Source of the DNA: Catajapyx aquilonaris
Taxonomy: Eukaryota
NCBI GenBank assembly: GCA_000934665.2
Contig: KZ538242.1
Location: 62,001-93,567, forward strand
Length of the DNA stretch: 31,567 nt
Direction: 5' to 3'
In this document: positions 786 through 30,394 of the stretch, in pieces
Numbering within the stretch: position 1 is the first letter of the stretch
Layout: every line of letters begins with the position of its first letter
Made by a program: the position numbers and the translations under genes
Notes under the pieces: model-generated
The model's input: only the letters and a program-made list of their open reading frames with translations
Told to the model about the DNA's origin: nothing
Database searches by the model: none

Positions 786-860
786 GGAAGGCACCCTGCG
801 AACTGTTTTTCAGTCGGCGATAGGAACACGCCCTCTGGAACCCTATCCAAGATGGCGACT
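786..860 (+). promoter_or_regulatory. Gene 1 core promoter with YY1/Pho-type motif
   Basis: GGAAGGCACC..GAACTGTT, then CAAGATGGCG at 848-857; paralogous blocks precede the other genes. Confidence 0.6.
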
Positions 861-1016
861 GTCTTTTACCGTTAGAAGCACGTTCCTTTGAAGATTTCCT
901 TCCATTTCCCCCTCCTTTTGGACCCCACTTCCTTCCCCTGTCCATCTCCCTTCTGATCCAGCATCATCTGGACCATATCATCCGAACATCTGAGGACTCT
1001 TAGAGGAGCACAAGCC

Positions 1017-3704
1017 ATGTCTCCAGTCACCCTGGAGTCTCTGATGGAAGTGTCTCTTGGCAACAGGAGGCTTCTGGAAGGGTTGATGTCACGAATGGAC
1101 TGGTGCCAGGAGGCCATCGGGAGGGTGGAGGGGTGGATGAAGAAGGAGAAGAAGCGTGGAAGGGAAGGTACGCATGAAGGAGGAACAAGGGTGCGCATCA
1201 GGAATTAATGCGTCTTGCATTCCAGAAGATGCTTCAGGCCAGCTGCTTCCCACCGAGTTTGTTTCCGTCAACATTGGACATGCAGGCAGCGAGTCATTGC
1301 CTGCGTCGTATAATGCTGAAAAAGAAATAAAAGTGGAGGAAGAGGATTGGGGAGTGGAGCAGGTGAGCGCATGAAGGATCACGCACTGATATACTAAAAA
1401 TTGAAAGCACCTGTAACTTAGTCAATTGAATAAAAAGCTTGTTCTTATATTTTTTAGGAGAGCTGTTATAGAGACTTGGAAGCAGAGACAGACAGAAACA
1501 GCTGTGAAATTACTGGAAATGTTAATTCAGAAGGTGGATATTCAGCAAGTATGACAAATTCTTTCCCACATGCATGTTAGAAGGTTTTCAGGACTATTCG
1601 ACATGAAGCCATGCTTTAATATGTGCCAATTGCGGTGTTGTTAATAATTCACCTAATAAGTTTCACATAAGCTGAGCATGAACCTTGACCTCAAAGTTGG
1701 GAAGTATCATTTGGACCAAGTAGGAATGCAGTAACCAAACACTCTTCAAGGGACTGCCCAAAAGTATGCGGGAAAATTGATCAAGGGACCGGAAAAAAGG
1801 GACGTTAAAAAAAGCACTAAATGCGGTAGCGTTATATCAAGGTTTTACTGTATATCGTCAGATGTGGTCAGCACACTTTCGAGTTAATCAGTGGATCTCC
1901 CCTCGGAGTCAAACTAGATGTACAGTCGCCGACATATTGATTGAATCACTTGCGAGCATCATTGCTCTGAATATCCAGGATAACGTTAGAAATCGGCTCG
2001 CAAGTGATTCAATCAATATGTCGGCGACTGTACAGTACTTACACACCTGACCCCCTTTGTGTGCCATCTGACTCAGCCATTTTCATTTGCAGGTGGAGCA
2101 GCTTCCTCACCTGATCTTCCAGTCAATGAAGAAGTCCATCCCCATGTGATTCAAGGATTGCACTTGCTTCACGAGGGAACAATGAAGCAAGAGATGCACA
2201 CTGAGAGTGAATTACGGAGCCAGGTATGGTCATTACTTCATTGCACAGTATTCGTATATTCTAAAAGTGATTTTTAAAAATGATAAGGGGCAAGCTGTTT
2301 CAATTAGGGGCAAGCCATATGTTAATGAAGGCATTAAATAATTTTTCATGTTTTATCAATGAATTTTTTTTTCAGTTTGTTACACTTTTGGAGATATGTT
2401 GTTGAAATTACCTAGAATGCGCCCAAAATTGTTCACATTATTATCCTATGATATATTAAATTCATTTATGACATGCTTGAGAGATAAATAAGTGCACATT
2501 GTTTCCATGAAAAACCGCAGTTGGAAAAAAATTATAATTGCGGAATTAGTACAGAATTGGTTATGAAAATGCGTCTATTGTGGTTACCTCCACACATTTA
2601 TTTGGAAGAAGTGCCTCCTTTTTTTTATGGGAAGAGTAATCTCCATTGATTTGTCATTATTCTTCAGGCCTCTACTTCTGCAAGCTGGAAGAACTCTCAG
2701 TCCATCAAAGTTGAGGCATTTCCATTAGAGGCGAGTGTTTCACATTAAAAAGATAAGGAAGCAGTTTCCTGGAAGTGGTCTGAATAGAACTGATGAGAAC
2801 AAAGAGAAGGAATTGATTGACTACAAGTCTTACTGAATGTTGCAGGTTGATGGAGCGGAAAATGAGGAAGTCAGTGATGTGAATGACTCCAGTGATGAAC
2901 ATGCCCCATCTGCTCAATCGGCTGATGATCCTGGTTGTGGCTCAAGTCGGATAACAAACCAAAAGCGGCAAAGGAAGGTACGCTTGTTTTAGTGTTAAGT
3001 TAATCAATGCCAAATCTAATTGCAGGAATTGCATTTTTTTTTTTGCACAACTTTAACACCTGCTTTACTTTTGAATTTTTTTGTAGCGCAAGAAACTACT
3101 GCAGCCAACTGAAACAGATGGTCCAAACAACACTGATCGGAACTGTGGGATTTCTTGTGCTTTGGAAATGGTTAAAGGAAAGAAATGGCATCAGTGTGAT
3201 CAATGCTCGTATAAGACTCAAGACACTGCAAACTTCAACAGGCATAAAGTTGTTCACGGAAGTGACCAAAAGCCTTTTGGTTGCGATGCATGTGAAAAGC
3301 GATTTAAGTCAAACCACGCCATGAAATTGCATTATAAGGCTGTCCATCTTGGTGTTACACCTTTTACTTGTGAAGTGTGCGATAAAAAGTTCCGTGGGAA
3401 GAGGAATTTGGAGGAGCACATGATGATCCACGCTGGCAAGAAGCAGCATTCATGTCAAGTGTGCAAAAAAACTTTTACGCTAGCCCGACATTTGAATTAT
3501 CACATGCAACTTCACACCGGAGAAAGAGAGTTACACTCTTGCTCCGTTTGTGGCAAAGGGTTCGGGTCCAAATCCGAAGTGGTCATACATATGAGGGTCC
3601 ACACTGGCGAGAAGCCCTATTGTTGCGACATTTGCCAGAAGAAGTATGCTAATCGCACTACCTTCCTTCGTCACAAGAAAATCCACACGGGACAAGGAAC
3701 CTGA
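1017..3704 (+). CDS. Gene 1: conserved N-terminal helical domain plus 6x C2H2 zinc-finger protein (about 440 aa, 7 exons)
   Basis: Exons 1017-1167, 1226-1362, 1458-1548, 2093-2223, 2668-2730 (GC donor), 2846-2977 and 3087-3704 join in frame (phases 1,0,1,0,0,0). The last exon has six C-x2-C-x12-H-x3/4-H fingers with TGEKP-like linkers. AATAAA at 3782. Confidence 0.88.
1729..1850. mobile_element. Degenerate pogo/Tigger-like MITE remnant
   Basis: Right end cgttatatcaaggttttactg-TA resembles a Tigger-type TIR; the left end (cagtaacc) is decayed. Confidence 0.4.
1923..2030. mobile_element. Tc1/mariner-type MITE (108 bp) in gene 1 intron 3
   Basis: Perfect 35-bp TIR cagtcgccgacatattgattgaatcacttgcgagc; TA on both flanks. 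Confidence 0.85.
3087..3704 (+). CDS. Gene 1 terminal exon, six C2H2 zinc fingers
   Basis: Acceptor ttttttgtag at 3086 is in frame with ORF 3162-3704 (HQCDQC...HKKIH). Confidence 0.92.
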   Translation, partial: RKKLLQPTETDGPNNTDRNCGISCALEMVKGKKWHQCDQCSYKTQDTANFNRHKVVHGSDQKPFGCDACEKRFKSNHAMKLHYKAVHLGVTPFTCEVCDKKFRGKRNLEEHMMIHAGKKQHSCQVCKKTFTLARHLNYHMQLHTGERELHSCSVCGKGFGSKSEVVIHMRVHTGEKPYCCDICQKKYANRTTFLRHKKIHTGQGT

Positions 3705-3707
3705 GGT

Positions 3708-4815
3708 ATCGTATGATTCAACTAAGATTCTCCTGAATTGCGCTGAACACGCTGTACAATATTTGGTAATAATTTTACAACAATAAATCAATAATTATGA
3801 CCCTGAAAAATGACACCAGTGGGAACGTACCCGACGTTTTGAATAGATTCTGAAGCGGCGACAGCAACACACCCTTAAGGAATTCCAAGATGGCGGCCGT
3901 GCAATGCATTTAGAAGCCTGCTGATTAACTTTCCATCGCATTTCCAGCTAGTTTGGTCCCCCTTCCTGCACTTTCCAACTCGCTTCTGGTTTAGCCTCAT
4001 CTGGTCTTCCCTTACCAACATCAGAATCAGGACTGAGGACTCTAGACTTGAAGCAATGGCTGCTCCAGTCACCCTGGAGTTTCTGATGGAAGTGTCTCTA
4101 GGCAACAGGAGGCTTCTGGAAGGGTTGATGTCACGGATGGACTGGTGCCAGGAGGCCATCGGGAGGGTGGAGGGGTGGATGAAGGAAAGTGGTAAGCAAG
4201 ATGAGGTTGGAAGGTTCCGCAAGATCTGCTATATAATAATCCAATTTTTCACGGCAACAGGAGCTAATTGACATACTTGTTTGCATGAGATTTAATTTCT
4301 TATTCAATTTCAGATGTCGCTTCAAGAAAGTTGCATCCCAGAGAGTTTGTAGCTGTCGACATTCAGGATAGAAGCGGTCGGATGTCGGACGGTAATATCA
4401 AAGTGGAACCGGAGGTTTGGGCACCAGAGCAGGTGATTAAAGCTGGAGTAATTGTGTACAATGGATGCTACACAGAAACTACTGCACTTGCATAATTTTA
4501 CTGTTCTGGAACGCAATGCATAAGTCAATTTTAAATAACTTGGAGCAATGTTTCGTTATGTGCCGTACCATCTAATGATTTCAATTGAAAATTGTAAGAT
4601 TGTGTCAGTTCAAAACTTTCACAAGTAGCTTAGTTGATCAATTTCTGGTTTTTCAATTTTTTGTCTCTTATTTTACAGGACACATTGAATGATGACCTGG
4701 AAGCGGAAACGGCTAAAAACATCAGTGAACTTTCAACCTTCATGAGTTGTGCATGTGCAGAAGTTGACAGTTTGGCTAGTGCAAGTAAGATTTAATGGAA
4801 AACGCAATGATTACA
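3708..4815 (+). repeat. Recent segmental duplication, matches about 6143-7230
   Basis: Promoter, exons 1-3 and introns are nearly identical by eye between genes 2 and 3. Confidence 0.9.
3821..3897 (+). promoter_or_regulatory. Gene 2 core promoter with YY1/Pho-type motif
   Basis: GGAACGTACCC, then CAAGATGGCGGC at 3886-3897. Confidence 0.6.
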
Positions 4816-6041
4816 GTTGAAAGGAGCTTGAGTAGTGCAGCCTTGCAATGAATATTTATGCATCCCATGTGATACTGGACATTGCAAATGCAGTAGAACC
4901 CCAATTATCCGACTCCTCGGTTTATCCGACCGTCCTGCTCCAGCAATAAATGTATGGTATCTCATCAAACACTAATGCAGGCCTACTGACAGTACTAAGC
5001 ATTTGTTTTGTACTGTATTGCCTTAACATTTTAAACAGTAGAGTGTGTATGTAAAAGATAAATGCTTCCCTAATTGTAAAAGATAAATACTTCGCTATTG
5101 TTTAGAAAACCGTATTATTGTACGAGTATAATGTCATTCTTTCAAATATTTTTTGTTGTTTCATAAAACTTTCCTTTGCTTCTCGGATTATCCGACCTTC
5201 TCGGTCATCCGACGATGCCCCAATCCCGTGGGTGACACATAATCGGGGTTCTACTCTACAGTACCATATTTGACGGCGTATAAGACACTTTTCCCCCCCA
5301 AAAAATGGTCCAAAAAAATCGTATTTCAGAAGTTGCTTCAGGCCAGTCCCTTCCCACCGAGATTGTTTTTGTCAACACTGGAGATGAACGCAACGAGTCA
5401 ATGCCTGCGTGTGACATTGAAACGGAAATAAAAGTGGAGGAAGAGGACTGGGGGGCAGACAAGGTGAGGACAAGGCACATAGGCTGATAGACTTTAAAAA
5501 TCAAAAGGTGCCAGTAACCTTGTTAGTCAATCGAATTAAATGTGTTGTTATTTTTTAGGTCAGATGTTATAGAGACTTGGAGGCAGAGACAGCCAAGAAC
5601 ATCAGTGAAATTGTTGAAATTGTCGGCAGTGTCGATTCAGCAGGTAGGGCACTTTCTTTATTGTGTCACTTGCATGTTAGAAGGTGTGCAGGCTAACTGG
5701 AAATGAAACCATGCTTTAATAAGTGCAACAAAAGTGTCATGAAGTACATGCAGTTTTGATTCCAAGTAGCTATGTACCAAATGAAGGGAGATGAAGAAAG
5801 AGAGCTGGAAGAAGCATGTGCATCAAGGAGGAAAGTCGTGCCCAGTCCCAGCCAACAGAAGAAGTGTATAAGAAGCCAAATGCACCTTCCCAAGATGATG
5901 AAAGACAAAAATGCCAGCCGCTGCCGAAAGAAAGGGTGCAAGGGGCGGTCTAGGGTGCAGTGTGATTGTTGCCACTTGTATTTTTGTGTTGTTTCGGAGC
6001 GCAACTGTTTTAAAGCATATCATTTATCCCTCTGTAAGTAA
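4056..6041 (+). CDS. Gene 2: chimeric family member ending in a piggyBac transposase C-terminal cysteine-rich domain (about 283 aa, 6 exons)
   Basis: Exons 4056-4191, 4314-4432, 4679-4784 (near-copies of gene 3 exons 1-3), 5330-5463, 5559-5643 (paralogs of gene 1 exons 2-3) and 5770(or 5767)-6041 all join in frame without stops. AATAAA at 6079. Confidence 0.65.
4891..5256. mobile_element. pogo/Tigger-like MITE in gene 2 intron 3
   Basis: TIRs cagtagaaccccaattat / ataatcggggttctactc; internal ttatccgac repeats at both ends; TA on the right flank. Confidence 0.75.
5770..6041 (+). CDS. piggyBac/PGBD-type transposase C-terminal Cys-rich (zinc-binding) domain exon
   Basis: HLP...RCRKKGCKGRSRVQCDCCHLYFCVVSERNCFKAYH gives C-x4-C-x7-C-x2-C-x4-C-x6-C-x4-H with the RNCF motif typical of PGBD C-termini. 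No DDD catalytic core is present. Tandem AAG/TAG acceptors both give phase 1. Confidence 0.75.
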
Positions 6042-6243
6042 TGTGTGTTTTTTTTGATATTATTTTGTTAGAGAGGTAAATAAATTTATTTTATTTTCTG
6101 CTTATGTTGTACTTTGCTGCTAGTATTGCAATCAGTATTGGCATCATATGATTCAACTAATATTAATTTCTGATTGCCCTGTGCAATTTGGTAATCATTT
6201 TATTATAATAATCAATAATATGACCCTGAAAAATGACACCAGT

Positions 6244-6320
6244 AGGAACGTACCCGACGTTTTGAATAGATTTTGAAGCGGCGACAGCAACACACCCTTA
6301 AGGAATTCCAAGATGGCGGC
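6244..6320 (+). promoter_or_regulatory. Gene 3 core promoter with YY1/Pho-type motif
   Basis: GGAACGTACCC, then CAAGATGGCGGC at 6309-6320. Confidence 0.6.
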
Positions 6321-6480
6321 CGTGCAATGCCTTTAGAAGCCTGTTGATCAACTTTCCCTCACATTTCAAGCTAGTTTGGTCCCCCTTCCTGCACTTTCCA
6401 ACTCGCTTCTGGTTTAGCCTCATCTGGTCTTCCCTTACCAACATCAGAATCCGGACTGAGGACTCCAGAGGCTTGAAGAA

Positions 6481-8297
6481 ATGGCTGCTCCAGTCACCCT
6501 GGAGTCTCTGATGGAAGTGTCTCTAGGCAACAGGAGGCTTCTGGAAGGATTGATGTCACGAATGGACTGGTGTCAGGAGGCCATCGGGAGGGTGGAGGGG
6601 TGGATGAAGAAAAGTGGTAAGCAAGATGAGGTTGGAAGGTTCCGCAAGATCTGCTATAATAATCCTATTTTTCACAGCAACAGGAGCTAATTGACATACT
6701 TGTTTGCATGAGATTTAATTTCTTATTCAATTTCAGATGTAGCTTCAAGCAAGTTGTATCCCAGAGAGTTTGTAGCTGTCGACATTCAGGATAGAAGCGG
6801 TCAGATGTCGGACGGTAATATCAAAGTGGAACCTGAGGATTGGGAGCCGGAGCAGGTGATTAAAGCTGGAGTAATTGTGTACAATGGATGCTACACAAAA
6901 ACTTGCGTAATTTTGCTGTTCTGCAACGCAATGCATAAGTCAATTTTTAAATAACTTGGAGCAATGTTTCGTTATGTGCCGTACCATCTAATGATTACAA
7001 TTGAAAATTGTAAGATTGTGACAGTTCATAACTTTCACAAGTGGCTAAGTTGATCAATTTCTGGTTTTTCAATTTTTTGGTCTCTTATTTTACAGGACAC
7101 ATTGAATGATGACATGGAAGCGGAAACGGCTAAAAACATCAGTGAAATTTCAACCTTCATGAGTTGTGCACGTGCAGAAGTTGACAGTTTGGCTAGTGCA
7201 AGTAAGATGATGGAAAATGCAATGATTACAGCAATGTGGTATTAAAGTATTGCATCCCTCTTCAGGTGAGGAATCTTCCACACACATCCATAGTGCAATC
7301 GAGTCTGAGCAAATGCCTCCGCACTCTTCACATATTCAGAAACCTGAACTCGGAGATGGTATAAAACCTGAGGTATAACGAAGACCTCCTATTATGATTG
7401 CAAACTGGAAAATATCCAACCAATTTTCAGAATAATGATGCCCAACCAAGCGCATTAGAGGACAAACGCATCCCATCGGATCACATGCAAGATGACTCTG
7501 ATGAAGTCACGAATGGGAGTGGAAAAAGACGCAGGAAAGAAAAGGTATGCTTGTTAATTTTACAGTCAGGTTTCACTACATCAGCTTTTCTATCTCCAAC
7601 TGGTGAAGAATTTTCTGTTCGATCAACCTGTGAGCATCTGGTTACGTTCTTGTTGCGTTAAAGTGGAATTATTTTCTAGGGAAGGCCCAAAGTGCAGGCA
7701 ACAGACCAACAGAATGATGACCAAGAGGCTTCTAGTAGCATGGACAAGGAGGAAACTGTACAGATGAAGAGGAATGAGAAAGGCATGTTCCAGTGCAGCA
7801 TATGTTCGTACCAGTCGTACCACATTTCGACAATCAAGAGGCATGAAACGACCCACAACAACGAGAAGCCCTACTGTTGCAGCATTTGTGAAAAAAAGTT
7901 TTCCTTGAAGAGTGCGTTCATGCGGCATTTCCGTACCGTCCATCTCGATAATAAGCCTTTCTCTTGCGACATATGCAACAAGAAATTTGCCAGGCGGGAC
8001 AGAATGGAGGAGCACAGGAGGATTCACACTGGCGAGAGGCCACATGCATGCAAAGTGTGCAACAAAACCTACGTTTCGCTAAATCACTTGAAGATTCACA
8101 TGATTACGCATAAGGATAAGACAGACGCACACACTTGCACCCATTGCGGCAGAGCATTTCAAGCCAAACGTGACATGGTTGTCCACATGAGGACGCACAC
8201 AGGTGAGAAGCCCTTCTGTTGTGACATATGCCAGAAAAGGTTCACTCGCCGTAATATAATGAATCATCACAGGAGACGCCAGCACGCAGGAGAATGA
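6481..8297 (+). CDS. Gene 3: N-terminal helical domain plus 6x C2H2 zinc-finger protein (about 399 aa, 6 exons)
   Basis: Exons 6481-6616, 6737-6855, 7096-7201, 7266-7372, 7431-7544 and 7680-8297 are in frame with canonical GT-AG introns; six fingers in the last exon. Confidence 0.9.
7680..8297 (+). CDS. Gene 3 terminal exon, six C2H2 zinc fingers
   Basis: Acceptor attttctag at 7679 is in frame with ORF 7692-8297. Confidence 0.92.
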   Translation, partial: GRPKVQATDQQNDDQEASSSMDKEETVQMKRNEKGMFQCSICSYQSYHISTIKRHETTHNNEKPYCCSICEKKFSLKSAFMRHFRTVHLDNKPFSCDICNKKFARRDRMEEHRRIHTGERPHACKVCNKTYVSLNHLKIHMITHKDKTDAHTCTHCGRAFQAKRDMVVHMRTHTGEKPFCCDICQKRFTRRNIMNHHRRRQHAGE

Positions 8298-8343
8298 CCG
8301 TAATGCAAAGCATGCAACAAAAATTAAATTCTCTCATATTGTA

Positions 8344-20319: not shown

Positions 20320-23300
20320 ATGGCGGCCTTGAAGGAATGGGCCAGGGGTAGCAGGTGTGGAGCTGAACAGGGTGAGTTTTTAGGGGATGTAAACACACCT
20401 ATATGTGACATGTAAATGAGAGAATCAATTGACTGGAATGTGGTTTTCCTCTTCAGTTGCAGTTGCAGACTGTCCTTCTGAAGCCCTCACTGCAGTCAAA
20501 GCCGAAGGGGAAAGTATAGATTTCATGCCGGCAGGCAGCGTCAAAGTTATTGAATCGGTCCAGTGCAAGACGGAGGAGATCACAGTGGAGGATGAAGGCC
20601 CATATGGAATTGATAGTTTGGTGGGGATGACATTGCACATTTATAGGGTCAGAAGGTCAAATGAAATGGCAGGATCAAAAATGAAAGGGGTGGGAAATGT
20701 TGATGTTGCAAATGGGGTCGTATCTTTGAAACGATTTGTGCATTACATAACTATGTGTGCACAGAGTATTACAAAATTTGTGGTGATTCAAAATCACTTG
20801 CATCATCTGAAGTCACAGTTTTCCCTTTGATAATAATGGTAGTTATAGGGATGAAGAGTCACATGAACACATCACAGCTTGCATCACAGTTTTCTTGATA
20901 TTGCTGTTTAAAGACACGTTTACATGTGAGAGATTTGATCAGCGAACAGCGATGTTGCAGTGATGACATCTCTGAACACAAGTAACGATAGATGTAACCA
21001 TATATTTTTAGCCCTAAACAATTAGTCTCATCGCTGATCAAATCGCTTGCATGTTAATGCAGCTTAAGATTGATATTAAATGTTGTTAGTTGGACAGTAA
21101 CATGTTTCCCCCTTGTCATGGCAGAGTCAAGACTTGGAAGCCAACGAAGCCAAAATATCCAGAAACATCAGTGAAATTGCTGCTCTCTTGAGTGGTTCAG
21201 ACATAGAAGATGCCTGTTTGGCAAATGCAGGTATGATTATGATGTTTATTCATATGTTAATGAAGGCTTCTGTTTTAATGAGTGCAGAATTAAAATCTCT
21301 GAACTAGAAGTGGGGGAATAGGTGGCAGAAATCTTCAGCAGAATATCGATCCTAATGGTTTAATGTTGCAGCATAGTAGTGTGACCTGAGCGGCTAGGAA
21401 CACACACAAAACAGAAGTCAGTGGGTACGGTTAAAGACAGACAGTTTATTCGGTTTCAGTAGGTCACCAAAATATGGAGGAAGAAGGATAGCAGGGTTAG
21501 GGAAGGTAGTCGGGAGTGACCAGTCATCCAGGATACTCTCCTAGAGAATGGCCTAGAGGCCCCTGCGTTGCGTGCTTAAATAGTGGTGCAAACGCAATGC
21601 GAGATGGGAACAGCAGACTGGTGACATCACGTGACCAGTCGGGGTGCAAGTACATTGAGCACAAAATAATGGGACCATGTACAAAAGACATGTCCAAAAT
21701 AAAATGGTCACAGTAGTAGCCTACTGTACAGGCAGCTAAATATTTTTCTTGTATATTAGAACAAGAGTAAATAAAACTTGCAAATTCCTGCATTCTTTAC
21801 TTGAAGGTTTCTGGAACTGCATTTCTTTGTGGCCTCCACTTTTATTTATTCTTTAAATTATTTGAAGACGTACTGTGCTATGCCATTGCATTTTCACAGG
21901 TGGAGAAGCAGCCTCCACATCTGGAAATCCTCAAGAATCTCGCGGACTCTCCACACTTGATGGAGGAAACGCTGAGGAGGAAGAAGACCTTGGAAGCACA
22001 GACAGTACTATAGTATGTGATATATTATTTTTGTTTCAAATTGATAATATCAAGAAGGGTGGGGAATCTGTTGGATGGCAGTCGATATTGCGGTGGTGAG
22101 CTGCAGATTTTAATCATGTTCATTTCATTAATTGTTAGTGTTAACAAATAGCATGTGGTGGCATGCGAACATGTTCCTGGAGGCCTGCAAGCCAAAGATT
22201 GAAGATTTCTCAGATCTAGGCCCTCCCCATCACATTCTCATGATGCACCTCTGAGCTGCAATGTTATTCTGTGTCGTAGGTCGCTACTTCTGAAGACTCA
22301 GACAACCCTAAACCAGGTGAGGGTGACAGCGTTCCATCCGCATCAGCTGACCCATCAATTGCACAAGCAAGCAGTCCAAGCAGGAGGAGGAGGACGACGA
22401 AGAAACAAGTTCTTGTAAGTAACATTCTGACAGAAAAGGGGAGCAATGTCTTATCCACTTGTAATGAGCACATTTTCTGGAAACACCGAGAATCTTCCAT
22501 GATTCTTTAAATATTAAAATTAGTACTCTGTTACACAGTATTTTCTCAGTAATTTGCAATAATGTCACAGAATTATTGACAGGTAGCAGTACCAAATTTG
22601 TAACCTTTCCCAAAGATACTTAAACATCGCTTTTGCTTACAACCAACCAGAAAATTTATTGTAGGTTTTTAGTTATTTACAACACTTGAGTAGCATTTTA
22701 AATGCTCTATGATCTGGTGAAGTCCATTTAGTCCTGCAGATTCATAATCGAAGTCAGGAATTTCTGTCTTCACTAGGGTTGCCGGATGTCTGGTTTTGAG
22801 CCAAACAGTCCGCCATTTGAGCGATTTTGTCCGGTAGAATATTTGAGGAAATACACTTTTTCAATGCCTACGCAAAGCCTTCTGCATTCCACATGCTTAT
22901 AGTGCACACTACTGCATACTGATTAATGAAACTATCCATAAAATGCGAAATTAGCGCACCGGAAAATTATGCAGGACCAAAATCAAATCCATATTATTAT
23001 CATCTGCCGTCTCCTTATTGCCAAATACGCCTGGAATGTTATTTACATACAATAATTATTAACAATTTGTTAAGAAGTTAAGCAGTGAAGAATATTAATG
23101 AGTGTAATATATTAGGCATTCTTGGCCACTGATTTCACATATTTCAGGCTCCGGTGCACAAGGACTTGGCTGATTCGAGTGACTCTGATCACTCAAAAGA
23201 GAATGGTTGTGCTGCCTTGATGAGGCGGAGGAAGAAGGGAAAAGGAAAGGTTTGTATTGCTAAATGACTGACCATTTCTGACCCTCTTCAGGGCATTGGT

Positions 23301-24388
23301 AGGACTCAATGAATCTTCCTACATTACTTTGGGAGGATTCAACTGTTATACCTACTAATATTTGCCATTACACTAAAAGAAGCTATTAAAAAGTAAGCTG
23401 GTTATGGGGAAAAAATTGATGACTATTTGTGACAATGCAATGGGAACACTTCAAATCTTGTTGGTTTGTGTAATGAAAAATTGTGCCTTGATGATTTCAG
23501 ATTATTCAGATTTCCTATCCTAGATGTACCTGAGCTGCAATATGATTCTATGTCGTAGGTCGCTGATTCTGAAGTTCCAGACAACAACCCTAAACCAGGT
23601 GAGGGTGACACCCTTCCATCAGCATCAGCTGGCCCATCAATTGCACAAGCAAGCAGTACAAGCACGAGGTGGAGGACGTGGGAGAAACAACTTCTTGTAA
23701 GTAATATTCTGGCAGAAAATAAGGAGAGCATTTTCTTATCCACTTGTAATGAGCAGATTTTCTGGCAACACTGAGAATCTTGCATGATTCTTGACCCATC
23801 CATGGGAAGGTGCAGTGTCGGTGGGGAGTTTCTGACCCGCACCTAGGGATTGTCTCGCAATCTGACCCCCTGGGGGACTGCACAGGACCCCCAACATAAA
23901 GACAACATACTTGCACCAGTGTCCCCTCCTCGCAAATCCCTATCCTGACATGGCACAGCTAAAATCATATTGGATAAATAAAGCAGTGAATGTCATATTG
24001 GGTTTCATGTAATTTTTTATTCGATTGGATTTTAAAAGACTAAGTTGTTTTTGACGGCGTATTTTATTTGTAGTAATGGTGAATTATTTTTTTGAAGGAA
24101 AACTGTGTAATGCAAGCAGCTGGAAAAAATACTTCAACGAGATTACCCGCTGGATACTTTCATGAGGATGGTACAATGTCAGATGTGGGCATGACAAGAA
24201 ATCTGACACCAAGGGAGACGACAAATCACCGGATTCGAGAAAGATTGACTGGTCAGGTGAAACTTACATCTGATGATAGGGAGTGGTGGGATCAGCTAAA
24301 CGAAAAATTAGCTGCGCTAGCAGCTAATCCTCCAACTGAAGACATTGAGTGCCCTAAGTCGCACATGCTAAGCAGTTGGACAGTTTAG
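20320..24388 (+). pseudogene. Gene 7: rearranged duplicate of gene 8 (5'-damaged, zinc-finger exon absent); pseudogene or truncated gene
   Basis: Exons 20320-20371, 20457-20620, 21125-21230, 21900-22012, 22280-22414, 23148-23249, duplicated exon 23559-23696 and candidate last exon 24098-24388 are in frame. In-frame TAA at 20308 lies upstream of MAALKEWARG. No YY1-type promoter motif seen. Homology with gene 8 ends at about 23370, just before the zinc-finger exon. Confidence 0.6.
21380..21712 (-). mobile_element. Solo LTR (333 bp), Gypsy-like
   Basis: TGTGACC...GGTCACA termini; 4-bp GTAG duplication; minus-strand TATTTAAG and AATAAA in LTR order; absent from the homologous intron of gene 8. 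Confidence 0.82.
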
Positions 24389-24724
24389 TGGAAGATACCA
24401 CTAATGCTAACGTTTATGAGATGAATTTAGCCTTTTGAGGCTCTACTACCCTTTTAAAATAAAACACAGTTCAATAATTAGTCTAATTTTAACTAATCTA
24501 CCACCAATGCTTTCCGTAGCCACCGAAAGATTCCACCCCACGCACACCCTATCACTTCGGATTTTGCCCCCTGTGTTTAACAGGGTTACCTTACCTCAGA
24601 GGAAGGGCACGGACATTTTTGGTGCATCACCAGTGGATGGGGACTGGCAAGGTGGTCTCCAACGGGATGCTCAGACCATATACCCATTCCACCTGCCCGT
24701 ATCTTTTTAGATCCTCCTAAGCTA

Positions 24725-24877
24725 GGGCCAGTTTCACTGCGGAAGTTATAGAATTTATTTTAGAACCTCTGTTATAACAAGAGACGCCATTGCTGACAAC
24801 AAGTAAACTTATTGATTTTCTTTGGATTTTCTGAGATGAAACTGGGATTTATAACATAATCCATATGAAACTGGCCC
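24725..24877. mobile_element. Harbinger-like MITE (copy 1)
   Basis: gggccagtttca...tgaaactggccc termini; homologous copy at 31032-31173 with shared downstream flank. Confidence 0.7.
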
Positions 24878-25023
24878 TATAGCCCTTTTCGGCTACTGAC
24901 AGGTATACGTCTATAAGTGGGTAATGTCTCCTCCTTTTTGTGTTTGGAATAGTGAAAGATGGCAGGAGATTGTGGAGATGATTAATGGGATTTTGAATGA
25001 TTACGATCATGATTGGAGACAAC

Positions 25024-25095
25024 AGCCCCTTAATTAAGACCGAATAGGTCAGTAAAGGGTAAATAAATTAAATAAATAAATAATAAAATAAAAAG
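25024..25095 (+). mobile_element. 72-bp retroposon 3'-end insertion
   Basis: 10-bp duplication tggagacaac (25014-25023, 25096-25105); stem-loop plus (TAAA)n tail; empty site in the paralogous region at about 31316. Confidence 0.85.
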
Positions 25096-25577
25096 TGGAG
25101 ACAACTGCACAACTTTGTTGTCAGAGTTGCTACCTCCTTGGCCTCTGTATAGTACAATAGAGATTGCGGGTAGAAGTTTTGGCCCACTGCTACATAGTTA
25201 CTGCTAACTTAGCAGTACCAGTGTTGGCATGATTGTATTGGCAACAGGGGAAAAGTGGGAGCCTTCTTAAGGACCAGGAGAAAGGTCTCTGCCATCTTCA
25301 AGGTGTGATGGACACTGCGGAGACCACGTACGCACGTCACTCGCTTTGAAATCGGTTATGAAATAAAAATTTTAAAAAGGCTGACAACTACTCAAGCATG
25401 TCTCCATTGTCCAACTTCATATTGTGGAGACGTTAAAGAAAAGAATGAAAATTAAGACAGACTTGAATCTGGTTTTTTTGTAAAGTGAATCAAACAATCG
25501 ACTAAGCGCTATCTGCGATATTAGTTCTTTACAGTCGCTTACCGGCTGGACTGACAGCTACGCTATTTTTTCCCGAT

Positions 25578-25590
25578 CCAAGATGGCGCC
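25578..25590 (+). promoter_or_regulatory. YY1/Pho-type motif upstream of gene 8
   Basis: CCAAGATGGCGCC about 190 nt upstream of ATG 25770, a spacing similar to the paralogs. Confidence 0.55.
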
Positions 25591-25769: not shown

Positions 25770-28700
25770 ATGTCCCCCACCGAGGAGAACCCTCCCCTCC
25801 TGGAGGCCCGCCTGGAAGGGATCGTGTCCCGACTGGTCTCCCTGGAGGAGGACATGGCTGCCCTGAAGGAGTGGGCCAGGGGCTGCAGGAGGTGTGGGGC
25901 TGGACGGGGTGGGTTGCTAGGGGGGACCACCCTTAGAATGATGTAAACACTCTCTGGGATGTGCTTCTTTCTCCTCTTCAGCTGCAGGCCAAGGCCATCC
26001 AGGCCACCCTCCTCCTGAAGGCCTCTCTCCTTCAGGCGGGGCTGGTGGAGACTCGGTCGCTGCTGTGGGGAGCATCAAGACAGAGTGGGGCCAGTGCAAG
26101 GAGGAGGAGGAGGTCACGGTGGAGGAGGAAGGCCCGCAAGGAATTATTGGCGGTTGGGTGAGGATGAGATTGCATGTTGGTGAGGTCAGGAGGTCAAATG
26201 AAATGGCAGGATCAAAAATGAAAGGGGTGTGAAATGTGATGCTGCAAATGGGGTTGTATTTCTGAAACTATTTGTGTATTACATAACTAGGTGTACACAG
26301 AGTATTAGAAAATTTGTCGTGATTCAAAATCACATGCATCATCTGAAGTCACACTTTTGCTCTTTGATAATAATGGTTTTAGGGATGGAGAGTCACATGA
26401 ACACATCACAGTTCTCTTGAAATTTCTGTTTAAAGCCATGATTACATGGTAGCGATTTGATCAGCGATGTTGCAGCAATGACATGACTGAGCAAAAGAAA
26501 CAATAGAGGTAACAATATATATTCGCCCCAAACAATTGGTTACATTGCTCACCGCTCTCATGTAAACGCAGCTTAAAGCTGATATGAAATATTGTTAGTT
26601 GGACCGTAACATGTTTCCCCCTTGTCATGGCAGAGTCAAGACTTGGAAGCCAACGAAGCCAGAATATCCAGAAACATCAGTGAAATTGCTGCTCTCTTGA
26701 GTGGTTCAGACACTGACAATGGCAGCTGGGCAAATGCAGGTATGATTACGATCCTTATTCATATATTAATGAAGGCCTTGGTCGTAGACTGTGCAGATTT
26801 TTAATCTAAGTAGAAGTGGGGCGATGGGTGACAGAAAACTTCAGCAGAACATTAGTCCGATTGTTTTAAAGTTGCAGCATAATTGTACTCTACAGTGTTG
26901 CACATTAATCGAGTCATACTGCTAGTGACATTTTCTGAAGCGGCAGAAGAACGAATCGAAGATATGGAACTAGCAAGCCGTGCGATCAAGATTCGTTCTT
27001 CTGCCGCTTCGGAAAGTGTCGCTAGCAGTATGACTCGATTAATGTCCAACACTGTACAACCAACAGGTATTGTGTGCATTACATTGGAGCTGTCCATCCG
27101 TCTAGCAGGGGGCCAGGCACGTGAAGGTCTCCCAATATCAAAATTAATACTATCAATCTCCACTCACAAGGGAACGGTACTTGTTGGAAGTTGAGTAGCC
27201 CTATGCAACTGGACATAGGGAAATCATCCATTTGGTTAATTCGAAAAGTGAAGTCCATTGTGGCTGAGATGCAAGAGTTTATGAGATAATGGCTTCTTAA
27301 GTTACCTATTGCAGCTGACACGGTGGTGGTATTTCCCAGGATAGGTAGTTCTGGTATAGAAAATATCTATCATCTATCAGTCAAATGGACTGTGTTGACC
27401 GCAACACTGCAACCTCTTCAATGCCATTTACCAGCCCCCTGCATCTCATACGATACTGTAGTGTAATATAAAAGTCTCCGTCCGCGGCACTGGCGCATCC
27501 CCACAGGGATCTTCTGGTTCGGGCGGACACTCGCTGACGCCTTAACCAATCCGAACCATTCTTTCCACTGCATCTGGGTCCGGAGGGCATTCGCAGATCG
27601 CCAGTCAGCCAAGCGAACCGCAAGATACCTGTGGGGCCATGCCAGCGCCAAATTTTAGGCTTGGGGAGACTTTTATATTAAACAACCGTCACCACAGGGC
27701 TAGATATTTTCTGCATTCTTTACGTGAAAGTTACTGGAACTGCATTGCATTGTGGCCTTTACTTTTAATTATTCTTTAAATTATTTGAAGTAGTACAGTA
27801 CTGTTCCATTGCATTTTCACAGGTAGAGAAGCAGCCTCCGCATCTGGAAATCCTCAACAAGAATGTCACAGACTCTCCACACTTGATGGAGGAAACTCTG
27901 AGCAAGATGAAGGACTCGGAAGCAGAGAAATTACTTTAATACATGTGTGAAATATTATTTTTGTTTCAAATGGATAATATCAAGTAGAGTGGGGAGTCTG
28001 TTGGATGGCAGTGGATATTGCGGTAGTCAGCTGCAGGTTTTAATCATGTTCATTTCATTCATTGTTAGTGTTAACAAATAACGTGATGGCATGTGAACAT
28101 GTTCCTGCAAGCCATATACAGTATTGAAGATTTCTCAGATCTAGGCCCTCTCTATCACATTATCAGGATGCATTTATGGATGCACCTCAGGATGCACCTC
28201 TGAGCTGCAATATTATTCTATGTCATAGGTCGCTGCTTCTGAAGTCTCATACAACCCTGAACCAGAGGAGGGTGATAGCCTTCCTCCCCCATCAGCTGAC
28301 CCATCAATTGCTCAAGCAAGCGGTCCAAGCAGGAGGATGAGGACGAGGAGGAAACAAGTTCTCGTAAGTAACATTCTGGCAGAAAAGGGGTGCATTTTCT
28401 TGTCCACTTGTAATGACCACATTTTCTGGCAACACTGGGAATCTTGCATGCTTCTTTAAATATTAAAATAAGTACTCTGTTATACAGAATTATCTCGGTA
28501 ATTTGCAATAATGTCACAGAATTATTGACAGGTAGTAATGTCAAATTTGTACACCTTTCCCAAGATTCTGTGCAATTAGCTCACCAGAAAGTTATGCAGG
28601 ACCAAAATAAAATCAGTAATTATATCCTGCCGTCTCCTTCTTCTTGATGTTATTCACATACAATAATTATTATCAATTTGTTAAGAAGTTAAGCAGTGAA

Positions 28701-29553
28701 GAATTAATGAGTGTAATTAGGCATTCTTGACCACTGATTTCACATATATCAGGCTCCTGATCACAAGGACACAGATGACAGTGGGCAGTCCCTGGCTGAT
28801 TCGAGTGATTCTGGGGATGAGCATATACCTCCAAGTCGCTCAAAAGGAAATGGCCATGCAGCCTTGAAGAGGAAGAGAAAGAAGCGAAATGGAAAGGTAG
28901 GTATTGCTAAATGACTGACCTTTTCTCACCCTCTTCACTTCAGGGCATTGGCAGAACTCAAGGAATCTTCATACATTACTTTGGGGGAATTCAACCGTTC
29001 TACATACTAATATTTGCCATTGCCTGATAAGCCATATCCGTGCAGTGATTGTGATAAGAGGTATATTACAAAGTGGGGGTTACAAAGGCATTGCAAGGAT
29101 GTCCATCTTGGTGTTAAGCCTTACTCATGTGACATGTGTGATAGGAAATTTCCTAGGAAGTCTCACATGGTTGTTCACAGGAGGAGTCACACAGGAGAAA
29201 GGCCATTCCAGTGTGAATGGTGCGAAAAATGTTTTTCTTCAAGTTCTCATTACCACGTTCATGTTCGGGGTCACAAGGGATTGAAACCATTTCATTGCAC
29301 CATTTGTGGCAAAAGATTTTTTCGGTCAGCACACTTCCACCGGCACATGTTAATTCACTCAGGTGAGAAGCCTTTTGAATGTACCACTTGTGGGAAAAGA
29401 TTTGGTCGGTCAGAAGTCTTACACCAGCACATGTTAATTCACTCAGGTGAGAAGCCTTTGGAATGTAGCACTTGTAGGAAAAGATTTAGTCGGTTAGGAG
29501 ACTTACACCGGCACATGTTAATTCACTCAGGTGAGAAGCCGTTTAACTCTTAA
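25770..29553 (+). CDS. Gene 8: N-terminal coiled coil plus 6x C2H2 zinc fingers (about 447 aa, 7 exons); seventh finger cut off by a transposon
   Basis: Exons 25770-25908, 25982-26157, 26634-26739, 27823-27944 (weak donor), 28229-28363, 28753-28896 and 29032-29553. A TACTAAT branch point at about 29005 precedes the AAG acceptor at 29031, giving ...RNGK|PYPCSDC. Confidence 0.75.
26893..27054. mobile_element. Tc1/mariner-type MITE (162 bp) in gene 8 intron 3
   Basis: Near-perfect TIRs of about 65 bp, cagtgttg...gaacgaatc; TA on both flanks. Confidence 0.85.
27464..27680. mobile_element. Unclassified MITE with bipartite inverted repeats
   Basis: taatataaaagtctcc / ggagacttttatatta outer arms plus inner imperfect arms ccccacagggatcttctggttcg / cgaaccgcaagatacctgtgggg. 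Confidence 0.65.
29032..29553 (+). CDS. Gene 8 terminal exon, six C2H2 zinc fingers
   Basis: ORF 29014-29553; the stop codon is supplied by the inserted element. Confidence 0.9.
   Translation, partial: PYPCSDCDKRYITKWGLQRHCKDVHLGVKPYSCDMCDRKFPRKSHMVVHRRSHTGERPFQCEWCEKCFSSSSHYHVHVRGHKGLKPFHCTICGKRFFRSAHFHRHMLIHSGEKPFECTTCGKRFGRSEVLHQHMLIHSGEKPLECSTCRKRFSRLGDLHRHMLIHSGEKPFNS
29290..29541 (+). repeat. 84-bp tandem repeat (three recently duplicated zinc fingers)
   Basis: cacatgttaattcactcaggtgagaagcc is repeated exactly three times at 84-bp spacing. Confidence 0.9.
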
Positions 29554-30320
29554 CTAGTAAGGTGGGGTCATTTTTGACCCCAAGCTTGCGGAAATTAGCA
29601 CTGTCAAATAACTGGTTAATCAAGAGCCAAAAGCTTCCAGGTATTCCTTGATCACATCTTTGTTTATGTGTTAATAACCTTTAAATTTTTCAAAAAAATT
29701 TAATAGCGGTCCAAAAACGGCTATAACAAAGGTGATGTGCGGCTGGGGTCAAAAATGACCCCACCTTACTAGTTACGTTTGGATTCCTCATTGTTCTTGG
29801 ATTCATGCCTGCCAGTGAAAAGCTTCTATTTTTTTTGCGTCAAACGGTGGCATGGCATGTACTAATGGCAAACCTGTCATAGATGATGCAATAATAATAA
29901 AAATTTGTAAATTGTTTCACATATGGGTTTGGCCTGCGCTCTCTATACTTATACAATGTCATATAGCCGTTATTTTGAAAGTATGACTTGTATGGCATTT
30001 AATGTAGAGGACCTATCATCATCATTTGGGGCTTTATATAGAGAAAGCGTATTTATGAATTGTTAGCATTGGCGGCTGCTACTGAGGTATCTTTAATTAT
30101 AAGCAGTTGACGTCTATTTGCATAGCTATCACACTTAGTAACGTGACCTATAAGTTTCTTTTATTACCTACTCATCGTACATAATGTAAACTTAATTTAC
30201 ATGGCTTTAAATTTTAAATTTTATGAATTCGAGATCAAATATAATTCAATTACCACGTGGGGTCAAAAATGACCCCACCTTACCAGTTGCGTTGCTCGAG
30301 TTCAGCTTACTAGTTAAGGG
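29547..30320. mobile_element. Non-autonomous piggyBac-type DNA transposon (774 bp)
   Basis: TTAA duplicated at 29543-29546 and 30321-30324. TIRs ctcttaactagtaag / cttactagttaaggg (1 mismatch). Subterminal GGGGTCA-(A/T)n-TGACCCC palindromes at about 29564, 29745 and 30259. No ORF. Confidence 0.92.
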
Positions 30321-30394
30321 TTAAATGCAATTTTTGTGGCAAACAGTTCAAGAACAAAGGAAACATGTGGAGACATGCCAAACAAAAGCATTAG
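30321..30394 (+). pseudogene. Detached seventh zinc finger of gene 8
   Basis: Removing 29547-30324 restores GEKP-FKCNFCGKQFKNKGNMWRHAKQKH-TAG in frame. Confidence 0.88.

Follow-up and report, generated by a model that had tools for sequence, protein, structure and literature searches.

Eight paralogous genes, g1 to g8, lie in tandem on the plus strand over about 30 kb of a Catajapyx aquilonaris window, the window being the whole stretch of 31,567 nucleotides that was analysed (Table 1). They were identified by self-blastn and by tblastn with exon peptides. The exon-1 peptides of g1–g5 show pairwise identities of 81–91%. In tblastn, exon 1 of g6 matches those of g1–g5 at E ~1e-6 to 1e-7, exon 1 of g8 matches that of g6 at E ~7e-4, and exon 3 of g3 matches those of g7 and g8 at E 0.003–0.009. 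Because these exon-3 and exon-1 matches are weak, g7 and g8 are remote members of the family. Open GT-AG models without interruption were obtained for all eight genes, with 4–6 exons before the last one. Intron phases of 1,0,1,0,0 are common to g1, g3, g4 and g8 (1,0,1,0,0,0 in the g8 model), and exons 1 and 2 are fused in g5 and g6.

The homology extends into the promoter region, where about 240 bp upstream are alignable among g1–g5. The motif AAGATGGCG occurs six times on the plus strand of the window against 0.17 expected, a number reached in 0/100 shuffles, and these sites are located upstream of g1, g2, g3, g4, g6 and g8. A variant, AAAATGGCG, takes its place in g5, and g7 is without a promoter motif, so that a promoter-like motif and an exon 1 of their own are present in 7/8 units. 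The original prediction of eight same-strand paralogs with a common promoter where retained, 5' exons and intron phases is thus borne out by self-blastn, tblastn and the GT-AG models. Several high-copy repeats and MITEs lie within the window, and its CpG o/e of 0.60 does not discriminate between an invertebrate and another origin.

Table 1 Features of the tandem gene family, in window positions
Feature	Position	Strand	Evidence	Remarks
Exon 1 starts, g1–g4	g1 1017; g2 4056; g3 6481; g4 9599	+	self-blastn, tblastn	
Exon 1 starts, g5–g8	g5 11792; g6 15903/15951; g7 20320; g8 25770	+	self-blastn, tblastn	
g1 promoter/5'UTR block	777-1016	+	self-blastn, alignment	AAGATGGCG at 849-857
Homologous promoter blocks	g2 3856-4055; g3 6271-6480; g4 9369-9598; g5 11576-11791	+	self-blastn, alignment	
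N-terminal module core, g1	1026-1142	+	AlphaFold2, dN/dS	39 codons
Same N-terminal core, g2–g5	starts 4068, 6493, 9608, 11795	+		
Acidic exon 2, g1	1228-1362	+		I-K-V-E motif at end, then acidic residues
g1	1017-1167, 1226-1362, 1458-1548, 2093-2223, 2668-2730, 2846-2977, 3087-3704	+	model	7 exons; six C2H2 fingers in last
g2	4056-4191, 4314-4432, 4679-4784, 5330-5463, 5559-5643, 5767-6041	+	model	
g2 last exon, Cys/His-rich ORF	5767-6041	+		phase-1 acceptor; stop at 6041; poly(A) signal +38
g3	6481-6613, 6737-6855, 7096-7201, 7266-7372, 7431-7544, 7680-8297	+	model	six C2H2 fingers in last
g4	9599-9749, 9827-9948, 10098-10191, 10333-10457, 10520-10627, 10999-11505	+	model	phases 1,0,1,0,0
g4 last exon, pogo/Tigger-type DNA-binding domain	10999-11505	+	Pfam	CENP-B_N + HTH_Tnp_Tc5
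g5	11792-12016, 12088-12193, 12327-12451, 12520-12633, 12980-13600	+	model, Pfam	first = exons 1+2 fused; six C2H2 fingers
Spare double-HTH exon, pogo-type, unattached	14718-15167 (ORF 14685-15167)	+	Pfam, tblastn	between g5 and g6
g6	15903-16274, 16591-16696, 17111-17232, 17539-17607, 17702-17821, 17983-18114, 18359-19063	+		7 exons; six C2H2 fingers
g7	20320-24388	+	alignment to g8, open model	
g8	25770-25908, 25982-26157, 26634-26739, 27823-27944, 28229-28363, 28753-28896, 29032-29553	+	Pfam	six C2H2 fingers

The last exons differ. As predicted, g1, g3, g5, g6 and g8 end in C2H2 arrays: Pfam C2H2 domains (zf-C2H2 / zf-H2C2_2) were found in 5/5 of these exons at E 1e-19 to 1e-37, each exon coding for six fingers, and g2, g4 and g7 are without a finger exon. 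Every last exon is followed by a poly(A) signal of its own, AATAAA and ATTAAA both being accepted in the scan. The units are tightly spaced: after the stops of g1, g2 and g4, the promoter motif or exon 1 that follows begins 136–269 bp further on. The usual family start codon reads ACA in g6, where an in-frame ATG is located 17 codons upstream. Exon 1 of g7 is reduced to its last third (20320-20371); exons 2–6 are kept with in-frame indels in the alignment to g8, and a phase-0 acceptor leads into a 96-codon ORF (24098-24388), which matches no family in Pfam and further searches. The ending described earlier as an unknown ORF therefore exists, in phase, and matches nothing. The genes form a tandem family whose front end is constant and whose last exon is exchangeable.

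The last exon of g4 codes for a complete CENP-B-type double HTH. Pfam assigns CENP-B_N (E 4e-6) and HTH_Tnp_Tc5 (E 2.6e-18) to it, and it matches the DNA-binding domain of human CENP-B (1HLV) at E 2.5e-27. It is 57–65% identical to the transposases P0002 and P0003, both of which carry DDE_1 (PF03184), over their residues 1–143, with 65% and 58% as the values for the two in one comparison. The alignment runs from transposase residue 1–3 to residue 143 with the acceptor AG inside the third codon, so that the exon opens at residue 3–4 of a pogo transposase and ends just past the DNA-binding domain. No DDE remnant was found downstream, tblastn with P0002/P0003 returning residues 1–143 only. The donor at 10627 and the acceptor at 10999, both of phase 0, join a separate exon in frame to give an open 368-codon model, with a poly(A) signal 40 nt after the stop. 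The pogo/Tigger CENP-B-type assignment thus stands, and the exon is truly derived from a pogo transposase. The identity of 57–65% to DDE-bearing transposases suggests a younger event than the domesticated pogo modules.

The spare CENP-B-type exon between g5 and g6, also present as predicted, gives CENP-B_N at E 5.8e-11 and HTH_Tnp_Tc5 at E 4.7e-12 and is likewise of transposase origin, matching P0003 over residues 7–137 (tblastn). It has a phase-1 acceptor no more than about 4 codons from the point where transposase homology begins, a stop at 15167 and poly(A) signals at +196 to +240, and it is without 5' exons of its own. Because it is only 25% identical to the g4 exon, the two are separate captures. 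Both pogo frames are open across the entire DNA-binding domain and close about 20–26 codons beyond it (about 20 in the spare exon). An intact pogo/Tigger element was rejected, since no DDE_1 domain is present and no terminal inverted repeats were found flanking the pogo-derived exons. The two pieces are domain relics rather than elements.

The Cys/His-rich last exon of g2 is a separate exon, and the phase-1 donors joined to 5767 yield open, in-frame models. It has no Pfam match at E<=0.01, and PF13842, the piggyBac Cys-rich domain, does not match even at E<=10; the only weak match is to another family, Transp_Tc5_C (E 0.016, 16 bits against a cut-off of 27.4). Word-indexed protein and PDB searches returned no relative and no match, respectively. 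In the language-model Atlas feature search, PGBD4-named and PF13842-bearing clusters came first at 0.94–0.96, with PF13842 in 14–29% of the members of those top clusters. Because HMM, word-index and PDB matches are absent, a transposon origin rests on this language-model lead. The Cys/His-rich exon had been correctly noted, its piggyBac label gaining no HMM support; the piece may be piggyBac-derived. The acceptors are in phase as predicted (g4 phase 0, g2 phase 1, spare phase 1), with a stop and an AATAAA or ATTAAA signal behind (g4 +40, g2 +38, spare +196). That the transposase pieces keep only the DNA-binding part is true of the g4 and spare exons and doubtful for the g2 exon. Upstream of it, g2 carries a second exon-2/3 pair (5330-5463 and 5559-5643), and its middle exons stay in frame in each combination tried. 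The g2/g3 duplicate is recent; 0/12 gaps fall in exons, which points to constraint, but the substitutions since duplication show none, with differences at 17/361 exon positions versus 12/388 intron positions, the exons differing more. g2 may be a patchwork, in which a recent copy of the promoter and exons 1–3 was placed ahead of an older headless unit.

The front module consists of a helix, an acidic exon and a basic exon. Its N-terminal core is predicted by AlphaFold2 on the paralog alignment to be a single long alpha-helix (residues 4–43, pLDDT 91–97). The motif [IV]K[VT]E is found at the aligned exon-2 position in 7/7 models, and this psi-K-x-E motif presumably fits the SUMO-acceptor consensus. 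The penultimate exon is basic and common to the family. The dN/dS of the exon-1 core is 0.00–0.19 in 10/10 pairs of g1–g5, every g2 or g4 pair included, and 0.09–0.19 for g2 and g4. Omega of the N-terminal region is 0.36 for g4–g5 (184 codons), comparable to 0.40 for g3–g5, and the middle exons are under weak constraint (omega 0.3–0.7). The amphipathic helix of about 40 residues would probably serve as a protein–protein or effector-recruiting surface; the acidic stretch with its psi-K-x-E motif would follow, and the short basic patch closing the penultimate exon is probably a nuclear localisation signal.

No Pfam family was found at E<=0.01 in any of 33 non-terminal exon translations scanned singly or in any of six N-terminal or unknown ORFs. 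Membership of the KRAB-, SCAN-, BTB- and ZAD-ZNF families was rejected on these scans, the front exons being without any Pfam match, and the expectation that the effector scaffold differs from known ones holds for these 33 exons and 6 ORFs. A front-module profile of about 45 informative positions gave zero matches among 1.84 billion proteins, a library seemingly without this organism's own proteome, and close species could therefore have relatives of the module. Orthologues of the cluster genes were not returned by the protein searches.

The last intron of g3 is spliced: run X5, the kind of which is not on record, contains a GT..AG joint 7542->7678 (cut +2) that equals the predicted intron 7545-7679 and is missing from the DNA run X1. 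A second X5 contig lies on 5765-6002 with no difference and continues upstream into 11 letters that disagree with the genome there, as expected from a splice of the exon ending in AG (5559-5643) to the g2 Cys-rich exon. Each of these two splice hints is one contig. Of the spliced reads anticipated into transposase-derived exons, a hint was thus obtained for g2, where the contig breaks at the acceptor, and no junction into the g4 last exon or the spare exon is among the X5 matches listed. We infer that the g2 and g4 fusions are spliced as well. Other X5 contigs lie past the g5 stop, at 13638-13912 and 13934-14336. X1 contigs cover 5573-6303, from the Cys-rich exon to the g3 promoter, and 10696-11824, from the g4 last exon to g5, with no difference.

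To our knowledge, transposase capture by zinc-finger genes has been systematically documented for tetrapods only, mainly for KRAB genes. The mechanism is host–transposase fusion, already known from tetrapod KRAB-ZNF genes; the new part is a scaffold of no known family. According to the available part of the source, transposase exons in tetrapods are captured by splicing, in most cases at an acceptor directly 5' of the transposase ORF, and the majority of the captured domains bind DNA (bioRxiv 10.1101/2020.05.07.082677). As in the KRAB–transposase fusions described there by Cosby et al., for example KRABINER in ZNF112, the transposase DNA-binding domain occupies its own 3' exon, which is in frame with the effector exons of a ZNF gene and has its acceptor where the transposase ORF begins; the catalytic part can be dispensed with, and the parent family is a tandem ZNF cluster. 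Of the criteria that Cosby et al. apply to such fusion genes, a separate exon in frame with host exons is found in g4 and g2, and RNA evidence for each junction is at hand in part, namely for the last intron of g3 and as the hint at the g2 acceptor. In contrast to those fusions, the front here has no KRAB and consists of an orphan single helix and an acidic K-x-E exon; 30 kb contain two or three captures, which stem from two superfamilies, and the finger exon of g4 is gone rather than retained as an alternative.

Other known systems share single features with the locus, as far as the available parts of the sources describe them. Like FiNZ-ZNF of cyprinid fish (Wells et al., PMC10547256), the family is a tandemly expanded ZNF subfamily defined by a lineage-restricted, glutamate-rich N-terminal sequence that belongs to no known family. 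However, FiNZ is described as 28 residues, coded by one exon that immediately precedes the single finger exon, and FiNZ-ZNF membership was rejected by architecture on that description, the present genes having 4–6 exons ahead of the last and a helix of some 40 residues. The available passages on FiNZ mention no transposase-ended members. As in the domesticated pogo/Tigger modules of CENP-B and of Drosophila CG4570 and cag (PMC13548663), the bipartite HTH alone is kept, but the g4 module is the last exon of a ZNF-family member, not a free-standing gene. As in the piggyBac-derived host genes PGBD1-4 and CSB-PGBD3 (PMC8086355, PMC5861402), a C-terminal Cys/His-rich zinc module would be reused in g2; unlike them, g2 would keep the small Cys-rich end alone, without the transposase core, and the PF13842 HMM test failed. 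The g2 layout, an upstream His and then Cys/His ligands, also resembles a variant class of piggyBac Cys-rich domains, and the solved member of this class is reported to bind a histone tail and not to bind DNA in vitro (PMC8086355).

We consider it rather probable that these genes code for nuclear DNA-binding regulators, form a tandem family restricted to one lineage and captured transposase-derived last exons. Each gene would have its own promoter block, and the DNA-binding domain would be coded wholly by the last exon. Because the phases at the upstream exon ends are fixed, an insert can replace the six-finger exon if it brings a phase 0/1 acceptor, an open frame and a poly(A) signal. Such a replacement would have occurred at least twice, a pogo/Tigger transposon supplying the bipartite CENP-B-type domain of g4 and a Cys-rich, probably piggyBac-derived piece supplying the end of g2; the spare exon may be a further capture or the relic of one. 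The route would be that of the tetrapod KRAB–transposase fusions, here on an unnamed front module. The products would act in the nucleus as regulators and would bind cognate transposon sequences. We are more tentative about a stronger form, in which the helix and SUMO-type acidic exon would constitute a new effector module that serves as a docking platform for three DNA-binding classes (C2H2 arrays, two unrelated pogo HTH and a piggyBac zinc module), and members that end in a transposase piece would bind the termini of the transposon families they came from, to silence or rewire them, as an independent counterpart of KRAB outside the known scaffolds; this is possible, at clearly less than even chances.

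A less probable rival is a young zinc-finger cluster of the ordinary type, some copies of which had their finger exon destroyed or displaced by transposon insertion and deletion; g2, g4, g7 and the spare exon would be dead or dying, and their open frames leftovers instead of selected fusions. The state of g7, which has lost the promoter motif, two thirds of exon 1 and the finger exon, is consistent with such decay, as are the altered g6 start codon, the headless spare exon, g2/g3 exons that diverged no slower than introns, and X5 matches listed without a junction into the g4 exon. However, both pogo frames are open over the whole domain, each preceded by an acceptor a few codons from the transposase start and followed by a poly(A) signal, and splice sites and phases are all intact. 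The exon-1 cores of g2 and g4 are conserved, the N-terminal region of g4 is constrained like that of finger-bearing paralogs, and an X5 contig match ends at the g2 acceptor.

The BTB loci lola and mod(mdg4) of Drosophila have one promoter and join a constant N-terminal module, by alternative or trans-splicing, to any of many DNA-binding last exons. A partly complex locus of this kind is improbable; front exons would then splice also to last exons further downstream, and neighbours would use the spare exon, and perhaps the ends of g2 and g7, as alternative 3' ends. The close packing of the units would suit it, the spare exon, with its phase-1 acceptor, could be joined to exon 1 or exon 3 of any unit upstream of it, the donors of these exons being of phase 1, the two exon-2/3 pairs of g2 combine freely in frame, and X5 contigs extend past the g5 stop. 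Against it, a single 5' exon set for many 3' exons is not what is found: unlike lola and mod(mdg4), the family arose by tandem duplication, 7/8 units carry a promoter and exon 1 themselves, each last exon has its own poly(A) signal, and no inter-unit joint is among the X5 matches listed. Misassembly at the repeats and MITEs of the window, joining transposon-derived pieces to the family, is very improbable, the X1 contigs spanning both joints without difference; since X1 may be the source sample of the assembly, these contigs are not independent support for it.

If the fusions are relics that are not expressed, what remains is a young ZNF cluster of the ordinary type, strewn with transposon remnants. 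If they are working genes, a second scaffold with the same behaviour would support gene architecture, namely effector exons of fixed phase followed by a single DNA-binding exon, as the decisive property rather than any particular effector domain. The locus is then a compact natural experiment, in which close paralogs differ essentially in the DNA-binding exon only, and the partners of the orphan helix-plus-K-x-E module could point to a so far unknown way of controlling transcription.

The eight paralogous units of the cluster (g1 to g8), whose front exons are constant and whose last exon varies, are best read as host–transposase fusion on a zinc-finger scaffold, in which transposase DNA-binding exons would have been joined to the front exons of a zinc-finger family via an acceptor near the start of the transposase open reading frame (ORF). 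Self-comparison and tblastn with exon peptides place all eight units on the + strand of the window, which is eukaryotic DNA with a CpG observed/expected ratio of 0.60, a value that does not discriminate between a vertebrate and an invertebrate source. The exon-1 peptides of g1 to g5 share 81–91% identity, and that of g6 matches them at E values of about 1e-6 to 1e-7. The exon-1 peptide of g8 matches that of g6 at an E value of about 7e-4, and g3 is connected to g7 and g8 through exon 3 at E values of 0.003–0.009, so that g7 and g8 are remote yet real family members. GT–AG combinations around the conserved blocks, with an uninterrupted frame required to each last-exon stop, gave open models for 8 of 8 units. 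The intron phases are 1,0,1,0,0 in g1, g3 and g4, with one additional phase-0 exon in g1. The same phases are obtained for g8 with a better donor (26157) and acceptor (26634), and this 1,0,1 model replaced a first g8 model with phases 1,1,1. Exons 1 and 2 are fused in g5 and g6. Where the other members have the family start ATG, g6 reads ACA (15951–15956), and an in-frame ATG at 15903, 17 codons further upstream, keeps the frame open. The same-strand paralogs, common 5′ exons and common intron phases of the original prediction are thus borne out.

The promoter is also common to the units where it is retained, as had been claimed. About 240 bp 5′ of the start codon can be aligned among g1 to g5. 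The motif AAGATGGCG occurs six times in the window, on the + strand only, upstream of g1, g2, g3, g4, g6 and g8; 0.17 occurrences are expected, and six were reached in 0 of 100 shuffles. A one-base variant is found in g5, and no copy lies upstream of g7. A second conserved block (about columns 20–45 of the upstream alignment) is common to g1 to g5. This block and AAGATGGCG, a putative YY1-like site, may be promoter elements that the units share. The window gave no match in scans for Rfam families and tRNAs.

Positions of the principal features of the cluster, counted within the window
Feature	Position	Strand	Content or basis
Exon 1 start, g1	1017	+	Self-comparison, tblastn
Exon 1 start, g2	4056	+	Self-comparison, tblastn
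Exon 1 start, g3	6481	+	Self-comparison, tblastn
Exon 1 start, g4	9599	+	Self-comparison, tblastn
Exon 1 start, g5	11792	+	Self-comparison, tblastn
Exon 1 start, g6	15903/15951	+	Self-comparison, tblastn
Exon 1 start, g7	20320	+	Self-comparison, tblastn
Exon 1 start, g8	25770	+	Self-comparison, tblastn
AAGATGGCG sites	849–857, 3887–3895, 6310–6318, 9430–9438, 15779–15787, 25580–25588	+	About 170–190 bp before the start codon
g2 last exon	5767–6041	+	Cys/His-rich frame, phase-1 acceptor, poly(A) signal at +38
g4 last exon	10999–11505	+	CENP-B_N and HTH_Tnp_Tc5 (Pfam)
Spare exon, between g5 and g6	14718–15167	+	Same two Pfam families as the g4 exon
g7 unknown ORF	24098–24388	+	96 codons, open via a phase-0 acceptor

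AlphaFold2 run on the seven-sequence alignment of exon-1 peptides predicts that the peptide of exon 1 forms a single helix over residues 4–43 (block pLDDT of 91–97), and the 39-codon core of this exon has a dN/dS of 0.00–0.19 in every one of the 10 pairs formed by g1 to g5. Exon 2 encodes an acidic stretch, in which [I/V]-K-[V/T]-E occupies one and the same alignment position in all seven modelled proteins. This motif fits the psi-K-x-E SUMO-acceptor consensus and may serve as a SUMO acceptor. Exon 3 contains a conserved D-L-E-A-E/N...N-I-S-E stretch, and the penultimate exon of g1, g3, g5 and g8 ends in a basic run, which probably acts as a nuclear localisation signal. Acidic residues make up 13–21% of the N-terminal regions. 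Pfam matches at E ≤ 0.01 were found for 0 of 33 non-terminal exon translations and 0 of 6 N-terminal or unknown ORFs, and the N-terminal pieces had no meaningful match in NCBIfam. The exon-1 profile, which has only about 45 informative positions, had 0 matches at E ≤ 0.001 among 1,835,955,588 representative proteins, and none of its 265 pattern matches in a metagenome contig scan was confirmed. Nothing scored among longer proteins in a word-indexed search with exon 1, and a language-model atlas search with the N-terminal module gave no family-bearing match, the best score (0.91) falling on an unnamed cluster. Because the profile is short and the organism's own proteins are absent from the results of the word-indexed and profile searches, this blank rules out widespread close relatives of the front module but not relatives in unannotated sister species. 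Of the claim of a putative invertebrate equivalent built on a different effector scaffold, the second part stands in that the front part matches neither KRAB nor any Pfam family.

The last exons of g1, g3, g5, g6 and g8 each encode six C2H2 fingers, in agreement with the arrays first proposed for these genes. The finger recognition positions differ among the paralogs; at these positions g3 and g5 agree in fingers 1–3 and differ in fingers 4–6. In g8, an 84-bp finger unit has recently been triplicated in tandem within the exon to give the last three fingers (29283–29544), with 82–87% identity.

Two proteins encoded in assembled public reads share 65% and 58% identity with the last exon of g4. 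Because both also carry a DDE_1 endonuclease domain, these relatives are pogo/Tigger transposases. The CENP-B-type double helix-turn-helix (HTH) claimed for g4 is confirmed. The alignment runs from transposase residue 1–3 to 143 and stops just before the catalytic domain. The acceptor AG, preceded by a long T-rich tract, falls within the codon that corresponds to residue 3 of the transposase. The frame ends 26 codons past the homology, with a poly(A) signal 40 nt after the stop, and tblastn with the relatives detected no DDE remnant downstream. The exon also matches the solved DNA-binding domain of human CENP-B (residues 9–130, E of 2.5e-27). The spare exon, likewise of the predicted CENP-B type, has no 5′ exons of its own. 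With no more than 25% identity to the g4 exon, it represents a separate capture. Its acceptor is in phase 1, about four codons ahead of the transposase homology, and its frame ends about 20 codons past the domain. No inverted repeats plausible as transposon ends were found around the captured exons.

A piggyBac Cys-rich domain had been assigned to g2. The acceptor of its Cys-rich exon has two in-phase AGs, 3 nt apart. Pfam gave no match at E ≤ 0.01 and only Transp_Tc5_C (0.016) at E ≤ 10, NCBIfam gave nothing meaningful, a PDB sequence search gave no match, and a word-indexed search found no relatives among longer proteins. The profile methods thus do not confirm the assignment. A language-model search placed clusters named PiggyBac-derived protein 4 or bearing PF13842 first (0.94–0.96), PF13842 being carried by 14–29% of the members of those clusters. 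By the rating of the search tool itself, the piggyBac origin is a lead. An AlphaFold2 model made without an alignment was unusable (mean pLDDT of 44.9). The Cys/His order of the exon, namely an upstream His, then Cys in pairs and singly, and a His at the end, fits the variant arrangement of PiggyMac and human PGBD2-4 as given in PMC8086355. The solved domain of that variant class bound a histone tail and not DNA, so that the claim that the captured pieces keep only the DNA-binding part, which holds for g4, is unsafe for g2. As a whole, g2 is an apparent patchwork, in which a recent copy of the promoter and exons 1–3 is followed by an exon-2/3 pair of older date and by the Cys-rich exon.

g7 has lost the promoter motif and the finger exon, and of exon 1 the first two thirds are gone as well; exons 2–6 are retained and differ from those of g8 only by in-frame indels. 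The unknown ORF proposed as its ending exists in phase and matches no family in Pfam, NCBIfam or the PDB sequence search. The ORF lies on 1.35 kb of g7 sequence that takes the place of about 2 kb of g8, the part with the finger exon. Exon 5 and its flanks are present in an additional copy 3′ of exon 6 (23530–23792; 84–87% identical to 22251–22507 and 28200–28456), which keeps the phase and introduces no stop when included. The g7/g8 duplication unit takes in downstream flanks (24723–25229 versus 31030–31448, 77–83% identical).

The predicted last intron of g3 (7545–7679) corresponds to a GT..AG joint (7542->7678) in sequencing run X5, and a cut at +2 fits equally. Because this joint, seen in one 452-letter contig, is present in X5 and in no contig of the DNA run X1, X5 is treated as cDNA-like, its readings being confined to the cluster parts covered by its contigs. 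A 249-letter X5 contig matches 5765–6002 in g2 with no difference, and its other 11 letters, which would lie upstream of 5765, do not fit the genome. A match starting two bases before the g2 exon is indirectly in line with splicing from the AG-ending exon 5559–5643. The g3-joint and g2-acceptor hints come from one X5 contig each, and the X5 matches listed include no splice joint leading into either the g4 exon or the spare exon. All splice sites and phases are intact in g2 and g4, and their exon-1 cores are as constrained (dN/dS) as those of the finger-bearing paralogs. The N-terminal omega is 0.36 for g4–g5 over 184 codons versus 0.40 for g3–g5. The corresponding whole N-terminal dN/dS for g2–g3 was rejected as meaningless, the second exon-2/3 pair of g2 being aligned to non-homologous g3 exons. 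The recent g2/g3 duplicate (3705–4816 versus 6140–7231) differs at 17 of 361 exon, 12 of 388 intron and 24 of 339 upstream positions. Because the exons differ no less than the introns, substitutions since the duplication show no sign of constraint; 0 of 12 gaps fall inside exons. Other X5 contigs (13638–13912 and 13934–14336) lie past the g5 stop and first poly(A) signal, towards the spare exon, and could reflect a long 3′UTR, read-through or repeat-derived sequence. Depth in DNA is raised over 13855–14521.

Cosby et al. described 94 independent fusions in tetrapods; according to that preprint, transposase domains are always on separate exons, an acceptor just 5′ of the transposase ORF served for capture in 8 of the 9 cases that were examined, 76.5% of the captured domains are DNA-binding domains, and KRAB is the commonest host partner (bioRxiv 10.1101/2020.05.07.082677). 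The g4 and spare exons match the tetrapod pattern closely. However, the host module here is neither KRAB nor any Pfam family, one 30-kb cluster brings together two or three captures that derive from two superfamilies, and the finger exon of g4 has been replaced rather than retained as an alternative. According to three further papers, FiNZ of cyprinids is a lineage-restricted orphan N-terminal ZNF module (PMC10547256), Tc1/mariner-type transposases are co-opted in Drosophila as a DNA-binding module only (PMC13548663), and multicopy families repeatedly take up transposon domains (PMC12062965). No description of such a cluster was found in the literature searched, subscription journals lying outside its scope, and supplementary tables could list similar cases. 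Overall, the observation behind the original prediction stands and so does part of its interpretation (a constant front, an exchangeable last exon and a pogo origin), but not piggyBac by profile methods.

Several repeats lie inside the cluster. In g2, the intron that separates exon 3 from the second exon-2/3 pair contains a non-autonomous element of about 365 bp (4892–5255), whose 17-nt terminal inverted repeats are 94% complementary. Its repeat ends look Tigger/pogo-like, which would make it a candidate target of the pogo-derived domains. The very high-copy repeat at 8519–9185 has no Rfam or tRNA match, and its summed contig depth in X1 is about 49,600 versus about 30–40 in single-copy bins. 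Three short palindromic MITE-like elements, with arms of 39, 48 and 34 nt that are 91–100% complementary, lie in a g1 intron (1919–2034), 3′ of g3 (8340–8435) and in g4, in the intron that immediately precedes the captured exon (10668–10769). The last of these has many variant copies in the DNA contigs (joints at 10715–10790).
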